From IMG/VR virus record IMGVR_UViG_2695420539_000017: a stretch of DNA of 14,342 nt, one strand, 5' to 3'. Shown piece by piece: positions 355 through 13,415 of the stretch. Numbering within the stretch: the stretch's first letter is position 1; each line of letters begins with the position of its first letter. The stretch is from a virus. Lineage: Duplodnaviria; Heunggongvirae; Uroviricota; Caudoviricetes. Position numbers and translations under genes: made by a program. Below the pieces are notes generated by a model that was given only the letters and a program-made list of their open reading frames with translations, searched no databases and had not been told where the DNA came from.

Positions 355-412
355 AAAAAGGGCGGCAGAGCAGTCACGGAGTAAAACTGATACCGCCAAA
401 CGTCACCAGAAA
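355..412 (-). ncRNA. dicF: DicF small regulatory RNA (antisense regulator of ftsZ), with 3' U-tail
   Basis: Reverse complement of 355-412 reads UUUCUGGUGACGUUUGGCGGUAUCAGUUUUACUCCGUGACUGCUCUGCCGCCCUUUUU, matching the DicF sequence from memory. Sits between ydfC and dicB as expected. Confidence 0.85.
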
Positions 413-3666: not shown

Positions 3667-5263
<1,597 letters not shown>

Positions 5264-5593
5264 TGGAGCACCTGTGTTGTTCTGAGGTGAGCATATCACC
5301 TCTGTTCAGGTGGCCAAATTCAGTGTGCCACTACAAAGTGATGAGATTAAAGTTTATTAGTTCAGATATTGATTGGCTCTTTTGTGGAGTAGGGTAGAGT
5401 TAGTGTGTTTGTCTGCTTGGTGCCAGCAGCGGATATGTTTAACAACAGAAAGCATTCAGCATGGTTAGTGGATTTGCAAAGTGGATTAGGATTTGAGAAA
5501 CTTTGATGAAGTTGTAAAGCTTGTTTCTATAAAAATAGAAATTTAACTAATAGTTAAACACACCTCCAGCTTCATTGAAAAGGATTATTAGCT

Positions 5594-6493
5594 ATGATTG
5601 ATCCACTTATTAGAAACTTACAGAGTGATATTGCACTACTCCAGCTTTATATCGCGCAACGCAAACAGGCAGGCTTTCATGACATGGAAAGAATAATTGA
5701 GTCATTGACCATCTTTATGTTTCGCGCGCTGAAAATGGGTGAACTGGTAAACATGAATCAGATTAAAGTTAATTTTCCCGCCATTGATTTAGCTGATAAT
5801 AAAAACATGATAGCAGTTCAAGTTACTACGAATGCAAGTCCAGCAAAAATTAAAAAAACTATCGAATCTTTTGAGAAAATAAATGAAATAGGAGAGAGTC
5901 TGAAAGATAAATACTCTACTTTATATATTTTTGGTTTTTGTAAAGCCTCAAGATACCTAACTCCAAGTTATTGTAAAATAATCGACCCCAGCTATTTCGT
6001 GAATGAACTTTGCGATAAAGCAGATGAAGATATGGTCCAGGATATGATTGACGCCATTCGACGCCATCATGATTATACATCATTACATCCATGGAGTGAT
6101 AAAGATTCACTCGAAATTATACTCAATATTATTAATCGCAATGCAATAAAACATCGGATGAGTTGCGAAGGCAGTCTGTCTGATATGCTCACTGGTTTAA
6201 AAGAAATTAATGAAGTAATTACAAAAGGAACAATTCAACGTAAGCAACGTTCAAAATCGATATCTGACTTCAAAGATCAAAGCATGGTGAAATTTATGAG
6301 AGGTGTAATGGATGATTTGTCTGTTATTCAAGCCATAGTGAACAAATCTAAAGTTAACCAAGGTGATATGGTTTATATAAGCCATGAAGATATGATTAAT
6401 ATTGATAAATTAAAAGCTAAAATAGCAAGTGATTCATCAGAGATTGCAAGGCTAAATAATATTGATATAACACTAAATGTTGTTGATTTATAA
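5594..6493 (+). CDS. Hypothetical 299-aa protein of the AT-rich island, with an RNxxxH (HEPN-like) motif; candidate toxin/abortive-infection-type effector
   Basis: Complete AT-rich ORF with AAGGA upstream of ATG 5594. Motif RNAIKH at residues 182-187 (nt 6137-6154); N-terminal motif NFPAIDLADNKNMIAVQVTT. Domain assignment not verified by search. Confidence 0.7.
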   Translation: MIDPLIRNLQSDIALLQLYIAQRKQAGFHDMERIIESLTIFMFRALKMGELVNMNQIKVNFPAIDLADNKNMIAVQVTTNASPAKIKKTIESFEKINEIGESLKDKYSTLYIFGFCKASRYLTPSYCKIIDPSYFVNELCDKADEDMVQDMIDAIRRHHDYTSLHPWSDKDSLEIILNIINRNAIKHRMSCEGSLSDMLTGLKEINEVITKGTIQRKQRSKSISDFKDQSMVKFMRGVMDDLSVIQAIVNKSKVNQGDMVYISHEDMINIDKLKAKIASDSSEIARLNNIDITLNVVDL

Positions 6494-6807
6494 TTGTCGA
6501 TTTAGCAAAACAGAGAATGCTTTGAAAGTTTCACCGAGAAATATTTATTGTGAACCTCCTTATTGTTTATCGACTTTTACTCTCCGCTCATTGCAGTACT
6601 GTCGGAGAAGGCTACTATGTACAAGAAGCAGCTAACATAAGCGAGCATCACTATTGATATTAGGAAGAGTATATAAAAACTTCATGCTGAACCTTACAAA
6701 AGTAGGTAAACCGGCAATGGCCTAAGTGGCAGGGTCATGTTGATCCGGCACTGCCGAGCTAATAATTAACAAGCAAATCACTCTTTCTAATAATTTGTTG
6801 AAATAAA

Positions 6808-7461
6808 CTAAATATGTATATGTTTACCAACAACCACATATGAACTACCTGCTTTGCTCCATGATTTTATTATTTCTAAATTATTATCTGAGCATATTTT
6901 ACTTACAGTATCCACATCTAATAAACCATAGTAGAAAGCATTGCGAGAGTTTTGGTATATATACCCATGCAAATGTTTAATACCGCTCTCGTACCTCTTG
7001 AAATAAGAACTTTTGTATTGATTGACAATCAGTGCTTCACCATCACTCTTTAATAATTCTCTAATCGCACTGAGGACTTTGTGAATTGTGGATTCACATG
7101 GAATTGCGGAAAGCACGTTTGCGCAAAGTATGAAATCATAATGATTTGTTATTTTATCTATATTTTCATAAGAAACAATATTAGCATTCTTATAGTTATT
7201 TATCACGTAATCTGGAATCGTGGTTTGTACACCTCTGATAATTTGCACTCTTTCTAGTTGTCTTCTGGAATCTAAAAATGTCACAGTTTCAAATTTATTT
7301 ACTAATTGTTCTGAATATCTAAGTTTTCCACATCCAAAATCAAGGGCATTGCCATTTTTATTAGTGCTTTCAATCTGTTTACAGAGATAGTTAGATGGCA
7401 TAGTGTGCGGTTTCGCTGCATTTTCTGAACGTATGTTTATTCCATTTATTTTGTAATTCAA
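6808..7461 (-). CDS. Class I SAM-dependent methyltransferase (small-molecule/RNA type), about 217 aa
   Basis: Motif I LDFGCGKL, acidic FLD after beta-2, and a YDFILCANVLSAIP segment; no DPPY/NPPW or PCQ/ENV DNA-methyltransferase motifs. Start set at TTG 7461 (GAGG 5 nt upstream) rather than track TTG 7467, which abuts the SD. Confidence 0.75.
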   Translation of the reverse strand: MNYKINGINIRSENAAKPHTMPSNYLCKQIESTNKNGNALDFGCGKLRYSEQLVNKFETVTFLDSRRQLERVQIIRGVQTTIPDYVINNYKNANIVSYENIDKITNHYDFILCANVLSAIPCESTIHKVLSAIRELLKSDGEALIVNQYKSSYFKRYESGIKHLHGYIYQNSRNAFYYGLLDVDTVSKICSDNNLEIIKSWSKAGSSYVVVGKHIHI

Positions 7462-7473
7462 AATCAACCTCGT

Positions 7474-8169
7474 TTAAAAAATATTGTTATTGTTAAAGAA
7501 TTCTTTTATTTTGCTATCAGGTATTTGTCTTACTTGGCTTTCTGTTCTTGGTTTAACTGATGCTATGAAAATAAGGAAGTCAAATGCGACAAGAGAAATA
7601 ATCCACAACCAAAGATTAATTAAAGAGCCAGTAACAGAGAATATATTTGTTAATTTGGCGATACTTATTATTAAAATAGTAACAAATGCGATTACTGTAT
7701 GTTCAAAGAAAACCCAAAAGTAATAAACTTTGTTCCAGAAAAGTTCAACGTAATGTTTGTCTTTTAACTCTTTAACTTCTGGGTAATACAGTTTACTCAT
7801 TACCTTGTGAGATTCATCAGTAGTTAATTTTCTCGTAACGCCTGCAATTTTTGCTAATGGTTTAATAATTAAATGACTATCCCACATCTTCCTTATTCCA
7901 ATAATTTTTGCTACATTATTATGTAGATCTAAAGCTCCACTAATTACTGACCAAAAAACTGAAGATGCAATTGGTAATATGCCAAAGGTTAATATCCATT
8001 TAATAAATTCCTCGTAGTCTTTAACGGGGGGGATATACTTGGCATTAATGCCAACCAATGGCATGTAGCCATAAATGACTAATGATAGGTAAAATATAAA
8101 TGTAGTAATAAAAGTCGCCTTATGGAGCATAGGCAACATTTCATTATAACTCTTTGGTGGTTCTAACAT
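7474..8169 (-). CDS. Integral membrane protein (about 4 predicted TM helices), 231 aa, unknown function
   Basis: Hydrophobic stretches (ATFITTFIFYLSLVIYGYMPLV, FIKWILTFGILPIASSVFWSVISGAL, VYYFWVFFEHTVIAFVTILIISIAKL, LINLWLWIISLVAFDFLIFIASV). Start set at ATG 8169 (GGAGAG upstream). Its stop at 7476-7474 lies 12 nt before the methyltransferase start. Confidence 0.7.
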   Translation of the reverse strand: MLEPPKSYNEMLPMLHKATFITTFIFYLSLVIYGYMPLVGINAKYIPPVKDYEEFIKWILTFGILPIASSVFWSVISGALDLHNNVAKIIGIRKMWDSHLIIKPLAKIAGVTRKLTTDESHKVMSKLYYPEVKELKDKHYVELFWNKVYYFWVFFEHTVIAFVTILIISIAKLTNIFSVTGSLINLWLWIISLVAFDFLIFIASVKPRTESQVRQIPDSKIKEFFNNNNIF

Positions 8170-8610
8170 TTTACTCTCCAAACACTCAAAAAAAAGCTAA
8201 TCTTCTATAATAACGAAATTCAGCTGGCACAATTAAAGATTAATTGCCACCAATTTCTTGATTTTATAATTTTATCTAAATGTTTTTGATTAATCTAGTC
8301 CTAAAAGAAACCTACTGCATAAATATTTATGCTGATGACCCACTCCCTGTTCGTTAACACATAGCAACGTTAGTAATGCATCCTAAGTGATCAATATTTT
8401 TGCTAGCTTCATCTGCTCGCTCAAAGGGAACTATAATGTTGGCTTGCGTGTGACTTGGCATGTTTAAAGAAGTGCTGGTGGTGACTGGTTGCTGTTTTCC
8501 ATTTCCACAGAACAAAATCATAGAAACTATACCCAGTAGTTGTATTGAATCACTGACGAGACAGCCTCATATTTATCAGGACTGGTGTACGTCCAATACA
8601 GGAGGTTGTG

Positions 8611-8700
8611 GTGCTGGTTCTCAAATGTGCGCTGGCTATTGCTGCTGTAATGGCAATTTATTGTCTTGCTGTTGTTCTTATGGATCACCTTTCTGATTGA
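8611..8700 (+). CDS. Candidate small hydrophobic protein (29 aa): possible type I toxin-like or small membrane peptide
   Basis: Perfect AGGAGG at 8600-8605, 5 nt before GTG 8611; product M/VLVLKCALAIAAVMAIYCLAVVLMDHLSD. Codon third positions are T-rich in this frame, unlike the overlapping Cys-rich 78-aa track ORF frame. Consensus -10 TATAAT at 8433-8438 upstream. Confidence 0.35.
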   Translation: MLVLKCALAIAAVMAIYCLAVVLMDHLSD

Positions 8701-8707
8701 TTTCATA

Positions 8708-8736
8708 TTGGCGAGGTAACGGTAGTTAAGTAGAAT
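8708..8736 (+). promoter_or_regulatory. Candidate hok promoter (-35 TTGGCG 8708-8713, 17-bp spacer, -10 TAGAAT 8731-8736)
   Basis: Placed just upstream of a 5' leader that begins GGGTGCTTGAGGCTATCTGCCTC (8743-), resembling the 5' end of plasmid hok mRNA as I recall it. Confidence 0.4.
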
Positions 8737-8911
8737 TGCTGCGGGTGCTTGAGGCTATCTGCCTCGGGCATCAACACCAAAGGCAGATAGAGAAAAGCCC
8801 CAGTTAACATTACGCGTCCGGCAAGACGCTTAACATTAATCTGAGGCCATATCTATGCTCTACACACGTAGGTTAGCCTCTTACGTGCCGAAAGGCAAGG
8901 AGAAGCAGGCT

Positions 8912-9067
8912 ATGAAGCAGCAAAAGGCGATGTTAATCGCCCTGATCGTCATCTGTTTAACCGTCATAGTGACGACACTGGTAACGAGGAAAGACCTCTG
9001 CGAGGTACGAATCCGAACCGGCCAGACGGAGGTCGCTGTCTTCACAGCTTACGAACCTGAGGAGTAA
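8912..9067 (+). CDS. hokD: Hok-family type I toxin (HokD/RelF-like), 51 aa
   Basis: MKQQKAMLIALIVICLTVIVTTLVTRKDLCEVRIRTGQTEVAVFTAYEPEE matches HokD as I recall it; AAGGAG 9 nt upstream of ATG 8912. The track ORF 8855..9067 is an in-frame upstream extension. Confidence 0.9.
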   Translation: MKQQKAMLIALIVICLTVIVTTLVTRKDLCEVRIRTGQTEVAVFTAYEPEE

Positions 9068-9137
9068 GAGACCCGGCGAGGGAGAAATCCCTCGCCACCT
9101 CTGATGTGGCAGGCATCCTCAACGCACCCGCACTTAA

Positions 9138-9160
9138 CCCGCTTCGGCGGGTTTTTGTTT
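9138..9160 (+). terminator. Rho-independent terminator downstream of hok
   Basis: CCCGC-TTCG-GCGGG hairpin followed by TTTTTGTTTTT. A 9-bp perfect stem with GAAA loop (9074-9095) lies just upstream. Confidence 0.7.
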
Positions 9161-9175
9161 TTATTTTCAACGCGT

Positions 9176-9205
9176 TTGAAGTTCTGGACGGCGCCGGAAT
9201 AGAAT
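9176..9205 (+). promoter_or_regulatory. Candidate promoter for rem (-35 TTGAAG 9176-9181, 18-bp spacer, -10 TAGAAT 9200-9205)
   Basis: Hexamers and spacing read directly from the sequence; no experimental support. Confidence 0.35.
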
Positions 9206-9283
9206 CAAAAATACTTAAGTAGCGCGCAGGGATAAGAGGGATGGTCCCTTAAAGGGGAGAGCTAATTATCCGGAAGGATTCTG

Positions 9284-9535
9284 ATGATGAACATCGAAGA
9301 ACTGCGTAAAATTTTTTGTGAAGATGGCCTCTATGCTGTGTGCGTTGAAAATGGAAATCTTGTTAGTCATTACCGCATTATGTGTTTGCGAAAGAATGGG
9401 GCTGCGTTAATTAATTTTGTGGATGGTCGAGTGACAGACGGATTTATCTTGCGCGAAGGTGAGTTTGTCACTTCATTACAGGCACTGAAAGAGATCGGAA
9501 TAAAAGCAGGCTTTTCAGCTTTTGCAGAAGAATAA
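9284..9535 (+). CDS. rem: Rem-like small prophage protein, 83 aa
   Basis: Complete ORF (MMNIEELRKIFCEDGLYAVCVENGNL...) with GGAAGG ribosome-binding site; sits next to hokD as in Qin. Confidence 0.8.
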   Translation: MMNIEELRKIFCEDGLYAVCVENGNLVSHYRIMCLRKNGAALINFVDGRVTDGFILREGEFVTSLQALKEIGIKAGFSAFAEE

Positions 9536-9601
9536 ACTCATCTACAATCTTGCGCGGGGCTGAACTCCCGCTGAGTAACACCGTGCCACCGGAGAAAACC
9601 G

Positions 9602-9880
9602 ATGGCACGCAACGTAAAATATTACAATTCTGATAATTCGCCCGTTCTTGCCTGCACGCACGAGCGGTATTCTCACGCATTCAAGTCTGAATGGTTCCAA
9701 CACCCTCCATGTACTGAAGAGCAGGCTGAATGGACAATTCAGTGTTACCGCAGGCGCGGATACGAGGTTAAGAAAGCCCTTAGTCTCGACTACCGTCACT
9801 GGATAATCTCCGTCAGGCTTCCTTACTCTGAACGCCCACCGCGTCCGTCTCGCACATTCCAGCAACGCATCTGGAGGTAA
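9602..9880 (+). CDS. Hypothetical phage protein, 92 aa
   Basis: Complete ORF with GGAGA upstream of ATG 9602; its stop is 1 nt before the YdfU-like start. No family recognised. Confidence 0.55.
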   Translation: MARNVKYYNSDNSPVLACTHERYSHAFKSEWFQHPPCTEEQAEWTIQCYRRRGYEVKKALSLDYRHWIISVRLPYSERPPRPSRTFQQRIWR

Positions 9881-9881
9881 C

Positions 9882-10931
9882 GTGCGGGTATTACTTCGAC
9901 CTGTTCTGGTACCGGAACTCGGGCTGGTGATCGTTAAGCCGGGCCGTGAATCCATGCCAGTATTCCACAATACCCGGGTATTGATGGAGCCGGAACCGAA
10001 AAGCATGCGTAATCTGCCGTCCGGGGTCGTTCCTGCCGTTCGCCAGCCGCTGGTGGAAGACAAAACATTGCTGCCGTTTTTCAGTAACGCACGGGTGATT
10101 CGTGCTGCTGGTGGTGCTGGTGCATTGTCTGACTGGCTGTTGCGCCATATTAAATCCTGCCAGTGGCCACACGGCGATTATCATCACAGCGAAACTGTCA
10201 TTCACCGTTATGGTACCGGCGCAATGGTGTTGTGCTGGCACTGCGACAACCAGCTGCGTGACCAGACATCCGAATCACTCGAGCAACTTGCTCATCAAAA
10301 CCTGTCAGCATGGATGATTGACGTCATCGGTCACGCAATAAGCGGTACGCAGGAGCGTGAATTATCTTTGGCTGAATTATCCTGGTGGGCGGTCCGCAAT
10401 CAGGTGGCGGACGCGCTACCGGAAGCGGTATTACGTCGTTCGCTGGGGGGGCGTGCGGAAAAAATCCGCTCAATGTACCGTGAAAGCGACATCGTGCCGG
10501 GAGAGCAGACCGCCACCAGCATACTGAAGCAGCGCACAAAAAATCTTGCGCCGTTGCTTCACACCCACCAGCCACAGAACCCAGCACAGGAAAAGGCGGT
10601 GGTCAGCATTACCGTTGATCCGGAGTCTCCGGAATCTTTCATGAGGCGACCTAAACGTCGCCGTTGGGTAAATGAGAAATATACGAGCTGGGTGAAGACA
10701 CAGCCGTGTGCGTGTTGTGGTCAGCCAGCCGACGATCCCCATCACCTGATTGGTCACGGTCAGGGAGGGATGGGAACAAAATCCCACGATATTTTCACGC
10801 TACCGCTGTGTCGGGAGCATCACAACGAGCTTCATGCGGATCCGCTGGCGTTCGAAGAAAAGCATGGTTCCCAGATTGATTTAATTTTTCGTTTTCTTGA
10901 TCACGCCTTTGCAACCGGCGTGCTCGGGTAA
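9882..10931 (+). CDS. ydfU: DUF968 / YdfU-like protein (349 aa) with C-terminal HNH-like Cys/His motif
   Basis: GTG start with GGAGG 6 nt upstream; length matches Qin YdfU (349 aa). C-terminal CACCGQPADDPHHLIGHG...SHDIFTLPLCREHHNELH (about 10706-10836). Confidence 0.8.
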   Translation: MRVLLRPVLVPELGLVIVKPGRESMPVFHNTRVLMEPEPKSMRNLPSGVVPAVRQPLVEDKTLLPFFSNARVIRAAGGAGALSDWLLRHIKSCQWPHGDYHHSETVIHRYGTGAMVLCWHCDNQLRDQTSESLEQLAHQNLSAWMIDVIGHAISGTQERELSLAELSWWAVRNQVADALPEAVLRRSLGGRAEKIRSMYRESDIVPGEQTATSILKQRTKNLAPLLHTHQPQNPAQEKAVVSITVDPESPESFMRRPKRRRWVNEKYTSWVKTQPCACCGQPADDPHHLIGHGQGGMGTKSHDIFTLPLCREHHNELHADPLAFEEKHGSQIDLIFRFLDHAFATGVLG

Positions 10932-12199: not shown

Positions 12200-12275
12200 G
12201 GCCCTTTAGCTCAGTGGTGAGAGCGAGCGACTCATAATCGCCAGGCCGCTGGTTCAAATCCAGCAAGGGCCACCA
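12200..12275 (+). tRNA. ileZ: tRNA-Ile2 type (anticodon CAU, ileX/ileZ-like; could formally be annotated Met)
   Basis: Cloverleaf: acceptor GGCCCTT/AAGGGCC, D-stem GCTC, anticodon loop CTCATAA, T-arm GCTGG-TTCAAAT-CCAGC, encoded CCA. Close to E. coli ileX from memory. Gene symbol by analogy with Stx phages. Confidence 0.8.
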
Positions 12276-12282
12276 TCACATA

Positions 12283-12359
12283 CCGCCATTAGCTCATCGG
12301 GATAGAACGCCAGCCTTCGAAGCTGGTTTCGCGGGGTTCGAGTCTCCGATGGCGGTCCA
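12283..12359 (+). tRNA. argN: tRNA-Arg (anticodon UCG by my fold)
   Basis: Anticodon stem CCAGC/GCTGG with loop CTTCGAA; T-loop TTCGAGT; acceptor CCGCCAT/ATGGCGG; encoded CCA. One D-stem mismatch and a C1-G72 pair are atypical. Symbol by positional analogy only. Confidence 0.65.
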
Positions 12360-12372
12360 TTATCGGTATTCT

Positions 12373-12449
12373 GCGTTTTTAGCTCAGCCGGACAGAGCAA
12401 TTGCCTTCTAAGCAATCGGTCACTGGTTCGAACCCAGTACAACGCACCA
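12373..12449 (+). tRNA. argO: tRNA-Arg (anticodon UCU, reads AGA)
   Basis: Anticodon stem ATTGC/GCAAT with loop CTTCTAA; T-arm ACTGG-TTCGAAC-CCAGT; encoded CCA; one acceptor-stem mismatch. Symbol by positional analogy only. Confidence 0.7.
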
Positions 12450-13215: not shown

Positions 13216-13415
13216 TTTTTTTGTTTGCTGTTTATTAAAAACACTTCTGCATGGTGAATCCCCCTGTGCGGTGGGGCAATCAGCAAGAAGGAATATGGGG
13301 TAATCGCGGATTCAGGTGCTGATACTGAATTCACCGGGAGGCACCCGGCACCATGCTTTGCCACAAAAGTGTTATTTCTGTTTTTCTCAAACTATCATCG
13401 TTATCCCTTTATTTT

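Follow-up and report, generated by a model that had tools for sequence, protein, structure and literature searches.

A membrane protein and methyltransferase gene pair in a lambdoid prophage

The IMG/VR record IMGVR_UViG_2695420539_000017 (14,342 nucleotides, the whole of which is hereafter called the window) is an Escherichia coli lambdoid (Qin/Rac-like) prophage. On its minus strand, within an accessory island of ~31% GC, it encodes an inner-membrane protein followed directly by a class I S-adenosylmethionine (SAM)-dependent methyltransferase. Both proteins are homologs of YmfE and YmfD of E. coli K-12, and the pair is a good candidate for a new type of defense against phages. Its features are as follows.

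7474..8169, minus strand: YmfE-like inner-membrane protein gene, ATG 8169 to TAA 7476-7474; 231 residues, four predicted transmembrane helices and a cytoplasmic helical insert of ~65 residues
6808..7461, minus strand: YmfD-like class I SAM-dependent methyltransferase gene, TTG 7461 to the stop at 6808; 217 residues
7462..7476, minus strand: gene junction, comprising TAA 7476-7474, GAGG Shine-Dalgarno 7471-7468, a 6-nt spacer and TTG 7461
8174..8179, minus strand: Shine-Dalgarno GGAGAG of the membrane gene, with GGAG 6 nt 5' of the ATG; TGGAGAG is kept in homologous upstream regions

In BLASTP comparisons, the membrane protein was 60% identical over 230 residues to YmfE (b1138) of the K-12 prophage e14 (E = 2e-108), and the methyltransferase was 68% identical over 212 residues to YmfD (b1137; E = 4e-113). 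One methyltransferase homolog carries the label ymfD. In e14, ymfE and ymfD follow each other in the same order as in the window, membrane gene first and methyltransferase directly after, abutting in the annotation and located beside lit and intE. Judged by the full-length homology of both proteins and their tight same-strand adjacency, which place the pair in the YmfE-YmfD family, the window genes are new alleles of the annotated, never characterized ymfE-ymfD pair of K-12, a relationship that the initial annotation of this DNA had missed. Both pairs occupy AT-rich accessory sites of a prophage close to a defense or toxin gene (lit in e14; a SMEK-domain gene and hokD in the window). They differ in that the e14 pair lies at the att/int end of e14 whereas the window pair lies in the replication-nin interval of a lambdoid prophage, and in that the proteins have diverged by 32 to 40% and the upstream regulatory DNA is unrelated. 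YmfE and YmfD have no assigned function, and the match to the window proteins names a family, not an activity.

The papers found on the K-12 genes assign them no function. ymfE was listed only with a "potential SOS box" (PMC6590174), and neither ymfE nor ymfD was SOS-induced (PMC11002266). The accessible part of a preprint on H-NS silencing of antiviral immunity (10.64898/2026.09.05.749240) names ymfE 11 times, including as "ymfE and lit" and "ymfE locus", and this work may already touch on the ymfE locus. Neither ymfE, ymfD nor the WP accessions of the pair were found in the accessible portions of the DefensePredictor main text and supplements. Two 15-kb E. coli "plasmid" matches were ruled out as plasmid copies of the pair, being excised e14 circles. 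In K-12 (locus L010, ~5440-5490, upstream of ymfE), the e14 ymfE-lit intergenic region contains a short tandem repeat array of the TCATTTCAT type that has no counterpart in the window.

The two genes are separated by 12 nt and share the same frame, with GAGG located three bases past the stop codon. The TTG 7461 start is the RefSeq call for an identical gene of 654 nt and fits the conserved N terminus M-x-Y-x-I-x-G seen across 58 homologs; an alternative in-frame TTG at 7467 in the list of open reading frames (ORFs) abuts the Shine-Dalgarno directly. The 12-nt junction, the GAGG and the TTG start given by the initial annotation all hold on reading the sequence, and the start also agrees with RefSeq.

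That annotation had also described a near-perfect, operator-like palindrome upstream of the membrane gene.

8225..8249, unstranded: imperfect inverted repeat TGGCA(CA)ATTAA-AGA-TTAATTGCCA, 7 bp plus 3 bp with a 2-nt bulge and a 3-nt loop

The repeat exists; however, "near-perfect" overstates an arrangement of 7 plus 3 bp interrupted by a bulge, and a gapless repeat finder did not report 8225-8249. Folded as a single DNA strand, it has an energy of -6.9 kcal/mol (z = -3.3 vs. its own shuffles). Within the 361-nt upstream region no inverted repeat surpasses it, but 6.7% of dinucleotide shuffles of that region yielded an equal or better one, a statistically marginal result. Homologs of 75 to 91% identity share the whole upstream region, TATA-like element and Shine-Dalgarno included, but do not retain the outer arms TGGCA/TGCCA; what persists of the palindrome is an AT-rich core dyad of 5 bp, in which one change may be compensatory. 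More distant homologs (K-12 e14, a P2-like prophage and locus L007) have unrelated DNA at this position. Hence, the palindrome is probably not an operator. On reading, it was also ruled out as a sigma-54 promoter, the spacing being wrong for TGGCAC-N5-TTGC, and as a LexA box, there being no CTG-N10-CAG. A consensus scan found no sigma-70-like promoter upstream of the membrane gene on the minus strand.

Pairing across genomes and properties of the two proteins

The distribution of the pair was determined from both sides. A methyltransferase-profile scan of one genome per species picked up 54 loci spread over about ten phyla; the groups represented include Gammaproteobacteria, Planctomycetota, Acidobacteriota, Bacillota, Verrucomicrobiota, Nitrospirota, and Actinomycetota. 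At 52 of these 54 loci, an adjacent ORF on the same strand matched the membrane-family profile with E values of 1e-38 to 1e-73, and the two exceptions were a contig end and a fragment. In the reverse direction, a metagenome scan with an 18-sequence alignment of the membrane protein found the methyltransferase adjacent at 20 of 21 loci, the exception being a 1-kb contig, and prophage loci from IMG/VR contained intact pairs in 27 of 29 cases. All exceptions to pairing were contig ends, fragments, or a copy disrupted by an insertion sequence (IS). The pairing is close to obligate. The initial annotation had named independent occurrence of the two genes in most genomes as the outcome that would speak against a unit, and the 52/54 and 20/21 adjacency from the co-occurrence analysis clearly excludes it.

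Membrane-protein homologs at 34 to 63% identity all had the methyltransferase downstream, in unrelated contexts, and methyltransferase homologs at 40 to 47% identity (Microbulbifer, Colwellia, and Pseudomonas) all had an upstream protein of ~230 residues with no Pfam match. Both gene orders were seen, with the membrane gene first at 39 loci and the methyltransferase first at 13. The divergence of the two proteins was correlated across 43 loci (Pearson 0.71; Mantel p about 0.001). Junctions fell between -28 and +14 nt at 49 of the 52 loci, a tightness that fits translational coupling. The co-translation proposed by the initial annotation is thereby borne out as probable coupling, and the two genes are probably a functional, translationally coupled pair. 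No third gene was conserved alongside them, no family being common to more than four of 118 flanking ORFs. The SMEK-domain gene near the window pair (5594-6493) was ruled out as a third component; the convergent gene for a 300-residue protein at a P2-like locus is unrelated to it, and no neighbor family recurs.

Hydropathy analysis of the membrane protein identified four hydrophobic segments (residues about 18-39, 57-79, 146-172, and 183-205), in line with its earlier designation as a membrane protein, with a K/R-rich insert of ~65 residues between the second and third. By the positive-inside rule, the N terminus, the insert, and the C-terminal tail are predicted to be cytoplasmic; the placement of the C terminus agrees with the cytoplasmic Toll/interleukin-1 receptor (TIR) domain fused there in relatives. 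The nearly invariant residues Y8, H83, R93, Y129, H139, W152, and E156 lie on the cytoplasmic side or in the third transmembrane helix. An AlphaFold2 model was of high confidence (predicted local distance difference test score, pLDDT, 96.3), and neither the structural comparison nor a fold search of BFVD returned a match. Pfam, PHROGs, PADLOC, and NCBIfam assigned no family, also in single scans of 90 members, and no name other than "hypothetical" was attached to family members in the sources searched. Models of the SLATT group gave no match to the window protein, and among the 90 members one matched SLATT_1 and one SLATT_4, both at noise level (E about 0.01). In three members of the family (L066, L067, and P0282), a TIR domain is fused to the C terminus of the membrane protein (TIR_2, E about 1e-20 to 1e-21). 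One of them, from a Candidatus Binatia metagenome-assembled genome (L066, 671-3211), is an 847-residue protein in which the membrane domain is fused to TIR and also to a further transmembrane segment and an Lcl_C (DUF1566-like) domain. This architecture suggests that one lineage has a module for sensing or binding outside the cytoplasm.

The methyltransferase matched Pfam Methyltransf_12 and Methyltransf_23 (E about 2.5e-8), and its other Pfam matches were to generic families only (Methyltransf_11/12/23/25, TehB, and similar), that to TehB being barely over the gathering score (24.5 vs. 20.4 bits). Motif I (D41-x-G43-C-G45) and the acidic D64 of motif II were invariant or nearly so in the 58 homologs. 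The AlphaFold2 model (pLDDT 90.4) has a Rossmann fold, and the structural comparison that had been suggested for it placed Trm9, DnrK, NNMT, NodS, and DhpI nearest, with TM-scores of about 0.6 and 10 to 16% identity. These neighbors are small-molecule or tRNA methyltransferases. On profile, motif, and model evidence, the protein is a class I enzyme of the small-molecule type whose SAM motifs are intact. Searching the PDB sequences with the profiles of both families gave nothing informative. Against the housekeeping equivalogs of NCBIfam, the methyltransferase scored far under every cut-off (for TehB, 28-29 bits vs. 218-303), the nearest named models being TehB and the C-terminal domain of ovoA. 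A match to a known housekeeping family, the second outcome that had been named as speaking against a unit, is therefore not seen among the NCBIfam models.

The initial annotation had stated that the methyltransferase lacks DNA-methyltransferase motifs, and motif reading and Pfam agree: the translated protein contains neither (D/N/S)PP(Y/F/W) nor PCQ/ENV, and no DNA-methyltransferase family of Pfam matched it. A C5-pyrimidine methyltransferase, considered on account of the segment SAIPC, was ruled out, this segment being the usual post-beta4 NVLxxxP of Methyltransf_11/12/23, and C122 is not invariant among the 58 homologs.

Genomic context and a proposed immune module

Across genomes, the pair was repeatedly found on mobile elements and near known defense genes. 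The e14 pair adjoins the Lit abortive-infection protease and an integrase. In a P2-like prophage of Enterobacter asburiae (L003), the pair lies between ogr and integrase remnants/cI, where a recognized defense hotspot of P2 lies. One locus was located in a relaxase/reverse-transcriptase element. Hachiman was found directly beside the pair in Pseudomonas and in Amphritea, Gabija GajA directly upstream of it in Eubacterium multiforme, and a type III restriction-modification system directly upstream of it in an Acidimicrobiia genome. The 118 nearest neighbors included further PADLOC matches to LmuB, capP, and mad3, and resolvases and integrases were their commonest Pfam families.

Some of these loci contained unannotated proteins. 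Between the integrase remnants and cI of the E. asburiae prophage, an unannotated protein of 300 residues (9058-9960, minus strand) with a weak nucleoside 2-deoxyribosyltransferase match (E = 0.005) may be another cargo gene of the hotspot. Directly upstream of the pair in Microbulbifer (L011, 725-4146) and at a second locus (L002, 1-1836), large unannotated proteins are encoded on the same strand, two of them (575 and 565 residues) with no Pfam match and one of 611 residues with Helicase_C; these may be further uncharacterized defense genes.

Taking together the near-obligate pairing, the mobile and defense-island context, the TIR fusions, and the conserved SAM motifs, we read the pair as a self-contained, horizontally mobile two-protein immune module, directed against phages or mobile elements and carried as prophage or island cargo, and we give this reading about an even chance of being correct. 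In such a module, the four-helix inner-membrane protein, with its conserved polar residues facing the cytoplasm, would be made in step with the methyltransferase through translational coupling, and the methyltransferase, predicted to be catalytically competent, soluble, and non-DNA, would dock on the cytoplasmic face of its partner to form a putative complex. Its SAM-dependent activity, with either the partner or a lipid or small molecule at the membrane as the presumed methyl acceptor, would set the state of the membrane protein. The latter would be the effector, and infection, the presumed trigger, would convert it to a state that compromises the membrane or blocks entry, with TIR-fused variants additionally consuming NAD+. 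We infer both this mechanism and the defense phenotype from architecture and context.

A further-reaching proposal, which we advance only tentatively, is that YmfE-YmfD may be a widespread and unrecognized immune system that does not methylate DNA. Its methyltransferase would mark a non-nucleic-acid target, or sense a SAM or methylation state perturbed by phages, and so control a novel-fold effector with four transmembrane helices, to which some lineages have joined a TIR NADase; the e14 pair beside lit in K-12 would be a silent example.

Several observations weigh against an immune function. The proposed mechanism has no direct support, and the link to defense islands consists of examples (at least 6 unrelated loci), several neighbors being housekeeping genes. 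The TIR fusions are rare, amounting to three sequences of which two are closely related. The membrane protein was unmatched in the 50,697 sequenced phage genomes of the deposited GenBank phage collection. No PADLOC model covers the pair, the sole match being a weak one of a generic methyltransferase domain to mad2, and the libraries and papers searched held no precedent for defense based on a non-DNA methyltransferase. In K-12, a Keio knockout of ymfD with ymfE intact grew normally, and ymfD was not the sole source of N6-methyladenosine in mRNA (PMC12096079); mutations in ymfD were neutral in a study of DHFR evolution (PMC6828540).

The pair was also compared with characterized systems. Like restriction-modification types I-III, BREX, DISARM, and MADS, it places a SAM-dependent methyltransferase in mobile defense contexts. 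Unlike them, it has no DNA-methyltransferase motifs or families, no nuclease, no ATPase, and no helicase, and consists of two genes, the second encoding a membrane protein. The invariant partner is a four-transmembrane protein that matches no nuclease family, and there is no third conserved gene, which sets the pair apart from restriction-modification. The match to mad2 is partial (E = 9.5e-5, profile positions 290-401 of 492) and the window island has no other mad genes, so that the pair falls outside MADS. The earlier statement that this is not a standard restriction-modification pair is thus upheld by the DNA-methyltransferase searches, by the missing nuclease partner, and by the small-molecule and tRNA enzymes that are its nearest folds. 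With the transmembrane and TIR effectors of defense (the transmembrane effectors of CBASS, Pycsar, and Thoeris; SLATT-TIR; and 2TM-TIR hotspot systems), the pair shares a small multispanning membrane protein in defense islands and, in some family members, a cytoplasmic TIR. In contrast to those modules, it has no cyclase, SMODS, SLOG, or other signal-generating partner, its invariant partner is a methyltransferase, and SLATT matches are not consistent. As a unit, a non-DNA methyltransferase joined to a membrane protein of unmatched fold is new to the defense catalogs searched (PADLOC v2, Pfam, PHROGs, and NCBIfam) and to the papers searched.

Three other explanations were weighed. The tehAB operon consists of a membrane protein and a soluble SAM methyltransferase, an arrangement that the pair mirrors, and the window genes could accordingly be detoxification or resistance cargo of the TehA-TehB type. 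Here, the methyltransferase would methylate a toxic small molecule, such as a chalcogen oxyanion, a thiol-reactive compound, or an antibiotic-like metabolite, and the membrane protein would import, export, or present it. The TehB match in Pfam, just over its gathering score, would fit such a role, as would the standing of TehB and the ovoA C-terminal domain as nearest NCBIfam models and the small-molecule and natural-product methyltransferases (NNMT, NodS, DhpI, and DnrK) among the nearest solved folds. Nevertheless, the TehB equivalog scores reach only about a tenth of their cut-offs, and the partner, with four rather than the 10 transmembrane helices of TehA/SLAC1, matches neither that family nor any other transporter family; membership in TehAB thus fails for both proteins. 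Moreover, the context of the pair is mobile and defense-linked, and neither TIR fusions nor repeated adjacency to defense systems would be expected of detoxification cargo, which we regard as unlikely.

Superinfection exclusion or lysogenic conversion, in which the pair would methylate an inner-membrane envelope lipid or carrier and block the entry of phage DNA without cell death, overlaps with an immune module in that it is still defense and differs from it in mechanism alone. The moron-type position of the pair in three prophage types argues for it, as do the inner-membrane location and a methyltransferase of the lipid or small-molecule type (Methyltransf_11/12/23). Many members are, however, found outside recognizable prophages, in chromosomal islands by Hachiman, Gabija, or restriction-modification systems, and in both diderm and monoderm phyla, and the TIR fusions suggest an effector that works through NAD, making this explanation improbable.

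An addiction module of the toxin-antitoxin kind, in which the methyltransferase would neutralize a toxic membrane protein and so stabilize the mobile element, would suit the compact operon of two genes that occurs on prophages, on islands, and on a conjugative megaplasmid, the frequency of small membrane proteins among toxins, and a prophage copy with a split membrane gene and an intact methyltransferase (L074) together with copies interrupted by ISVsa5, but it too is improbable given that the Keio deletion of ymfD is viable beside an intact ymfE (a weaker argument if the locus is silent in the laboratory), that a K-12-like assembly has a frameshifted ymfD and an intact ymfE (L111, which may be an assembly error), that the catalytic SAM motifs, unneeded for simple sequestration, are strictly conserved, and that both gene orders occur.

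If the pair is an immune module, two y-genes of E. coli K-12 would at last gain a function after long standing without one. The family is easy to test, being ~1.4 kb in size, native to E. coli, and amenable to obvious catalytic point mutants, and its conservation from Proteobacteria to Bacillota and Planctomycetota means that a mechanism established in E. coli would generalize. Should it instead be a metabolic or detoxification pair, this would still provide a function for a family for which Pfam has no model and every member of which the databases searched call "hypothetical".

The accessory island and other prophage features

The prophage genes run in the order dicB, dicA/dicC, a ydaT-like gene, a DUF977 gene, the island, sok/hokD, DUF968, rusA, Q, and three tRNAs. 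The island and its surroundings contain the following features.

5336..8740, unstranded: low-GC accessory island, from the composition profile and from identical DNA as annotated in the E. coli strains C7 and MEI003
~4090-5335, minus strand: IS3-family insertion between the DUF977 gene and the island, with an HTH_Tnp_1 ORF at 4961-5299 and an rve ORF at 4095-4799
5594-6493, plus strand: SMEK-domain gene, 299 residues, with the domain at the N terminus (Pfam E = 2.2e-22; NCBIfam E = 1.3e-30)
8743-8917, plus strand: sok antisense RNA (Rfam, 114 bits)
8855-9067 (ORF), plus strand: hokD/mok type I toxin locus, from the annotation of identical prophage DNA
360-411, minus strand: DicF small RNA
12200-12446, plus strand: cluster of three tRNAs, annotated as Ile, Arg, and Arg in an identical prophage
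13220-13392, plus strand: STnc100 small RNA

In the composition profile, the island has a GC content of ~30 to 35%, compared with ~50% in the surrounding DNA. It contains the pair and the convergent SMEK-domain gene and is flanked by the DUF977 replication-region gene, with its IS3 insertion, on one side and by sok/hokD (nin) on the other. At query coverage of at least 80%, 151 of 5426 complete E. coli genomes carry the island. The prophages of strains MEI003 and C7 lack the IS3-family element and are 98% identical in other respects. Diverging from the pair, sok and hokD/mok lie directly upstream of its promoter region. DicF, the tRNA cluster, and STnc100 are standard features of Qin-type prophages.

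The SMEK domain of the 5594-6493 protein also matched the N-terminal part of the Argonaute-associated "REase-PNTD" model of PADLOC (E = 1.4e-20), and the accessible part of PMC10810196 describes SMEK as a nuclease domain of partners of short prokaryotic Argonautes. In the window protein, the domain stands alone, the C-terminal half has no assignment, and the gene is convergent with the pair; it may be a separate, single-gene defense candidate.

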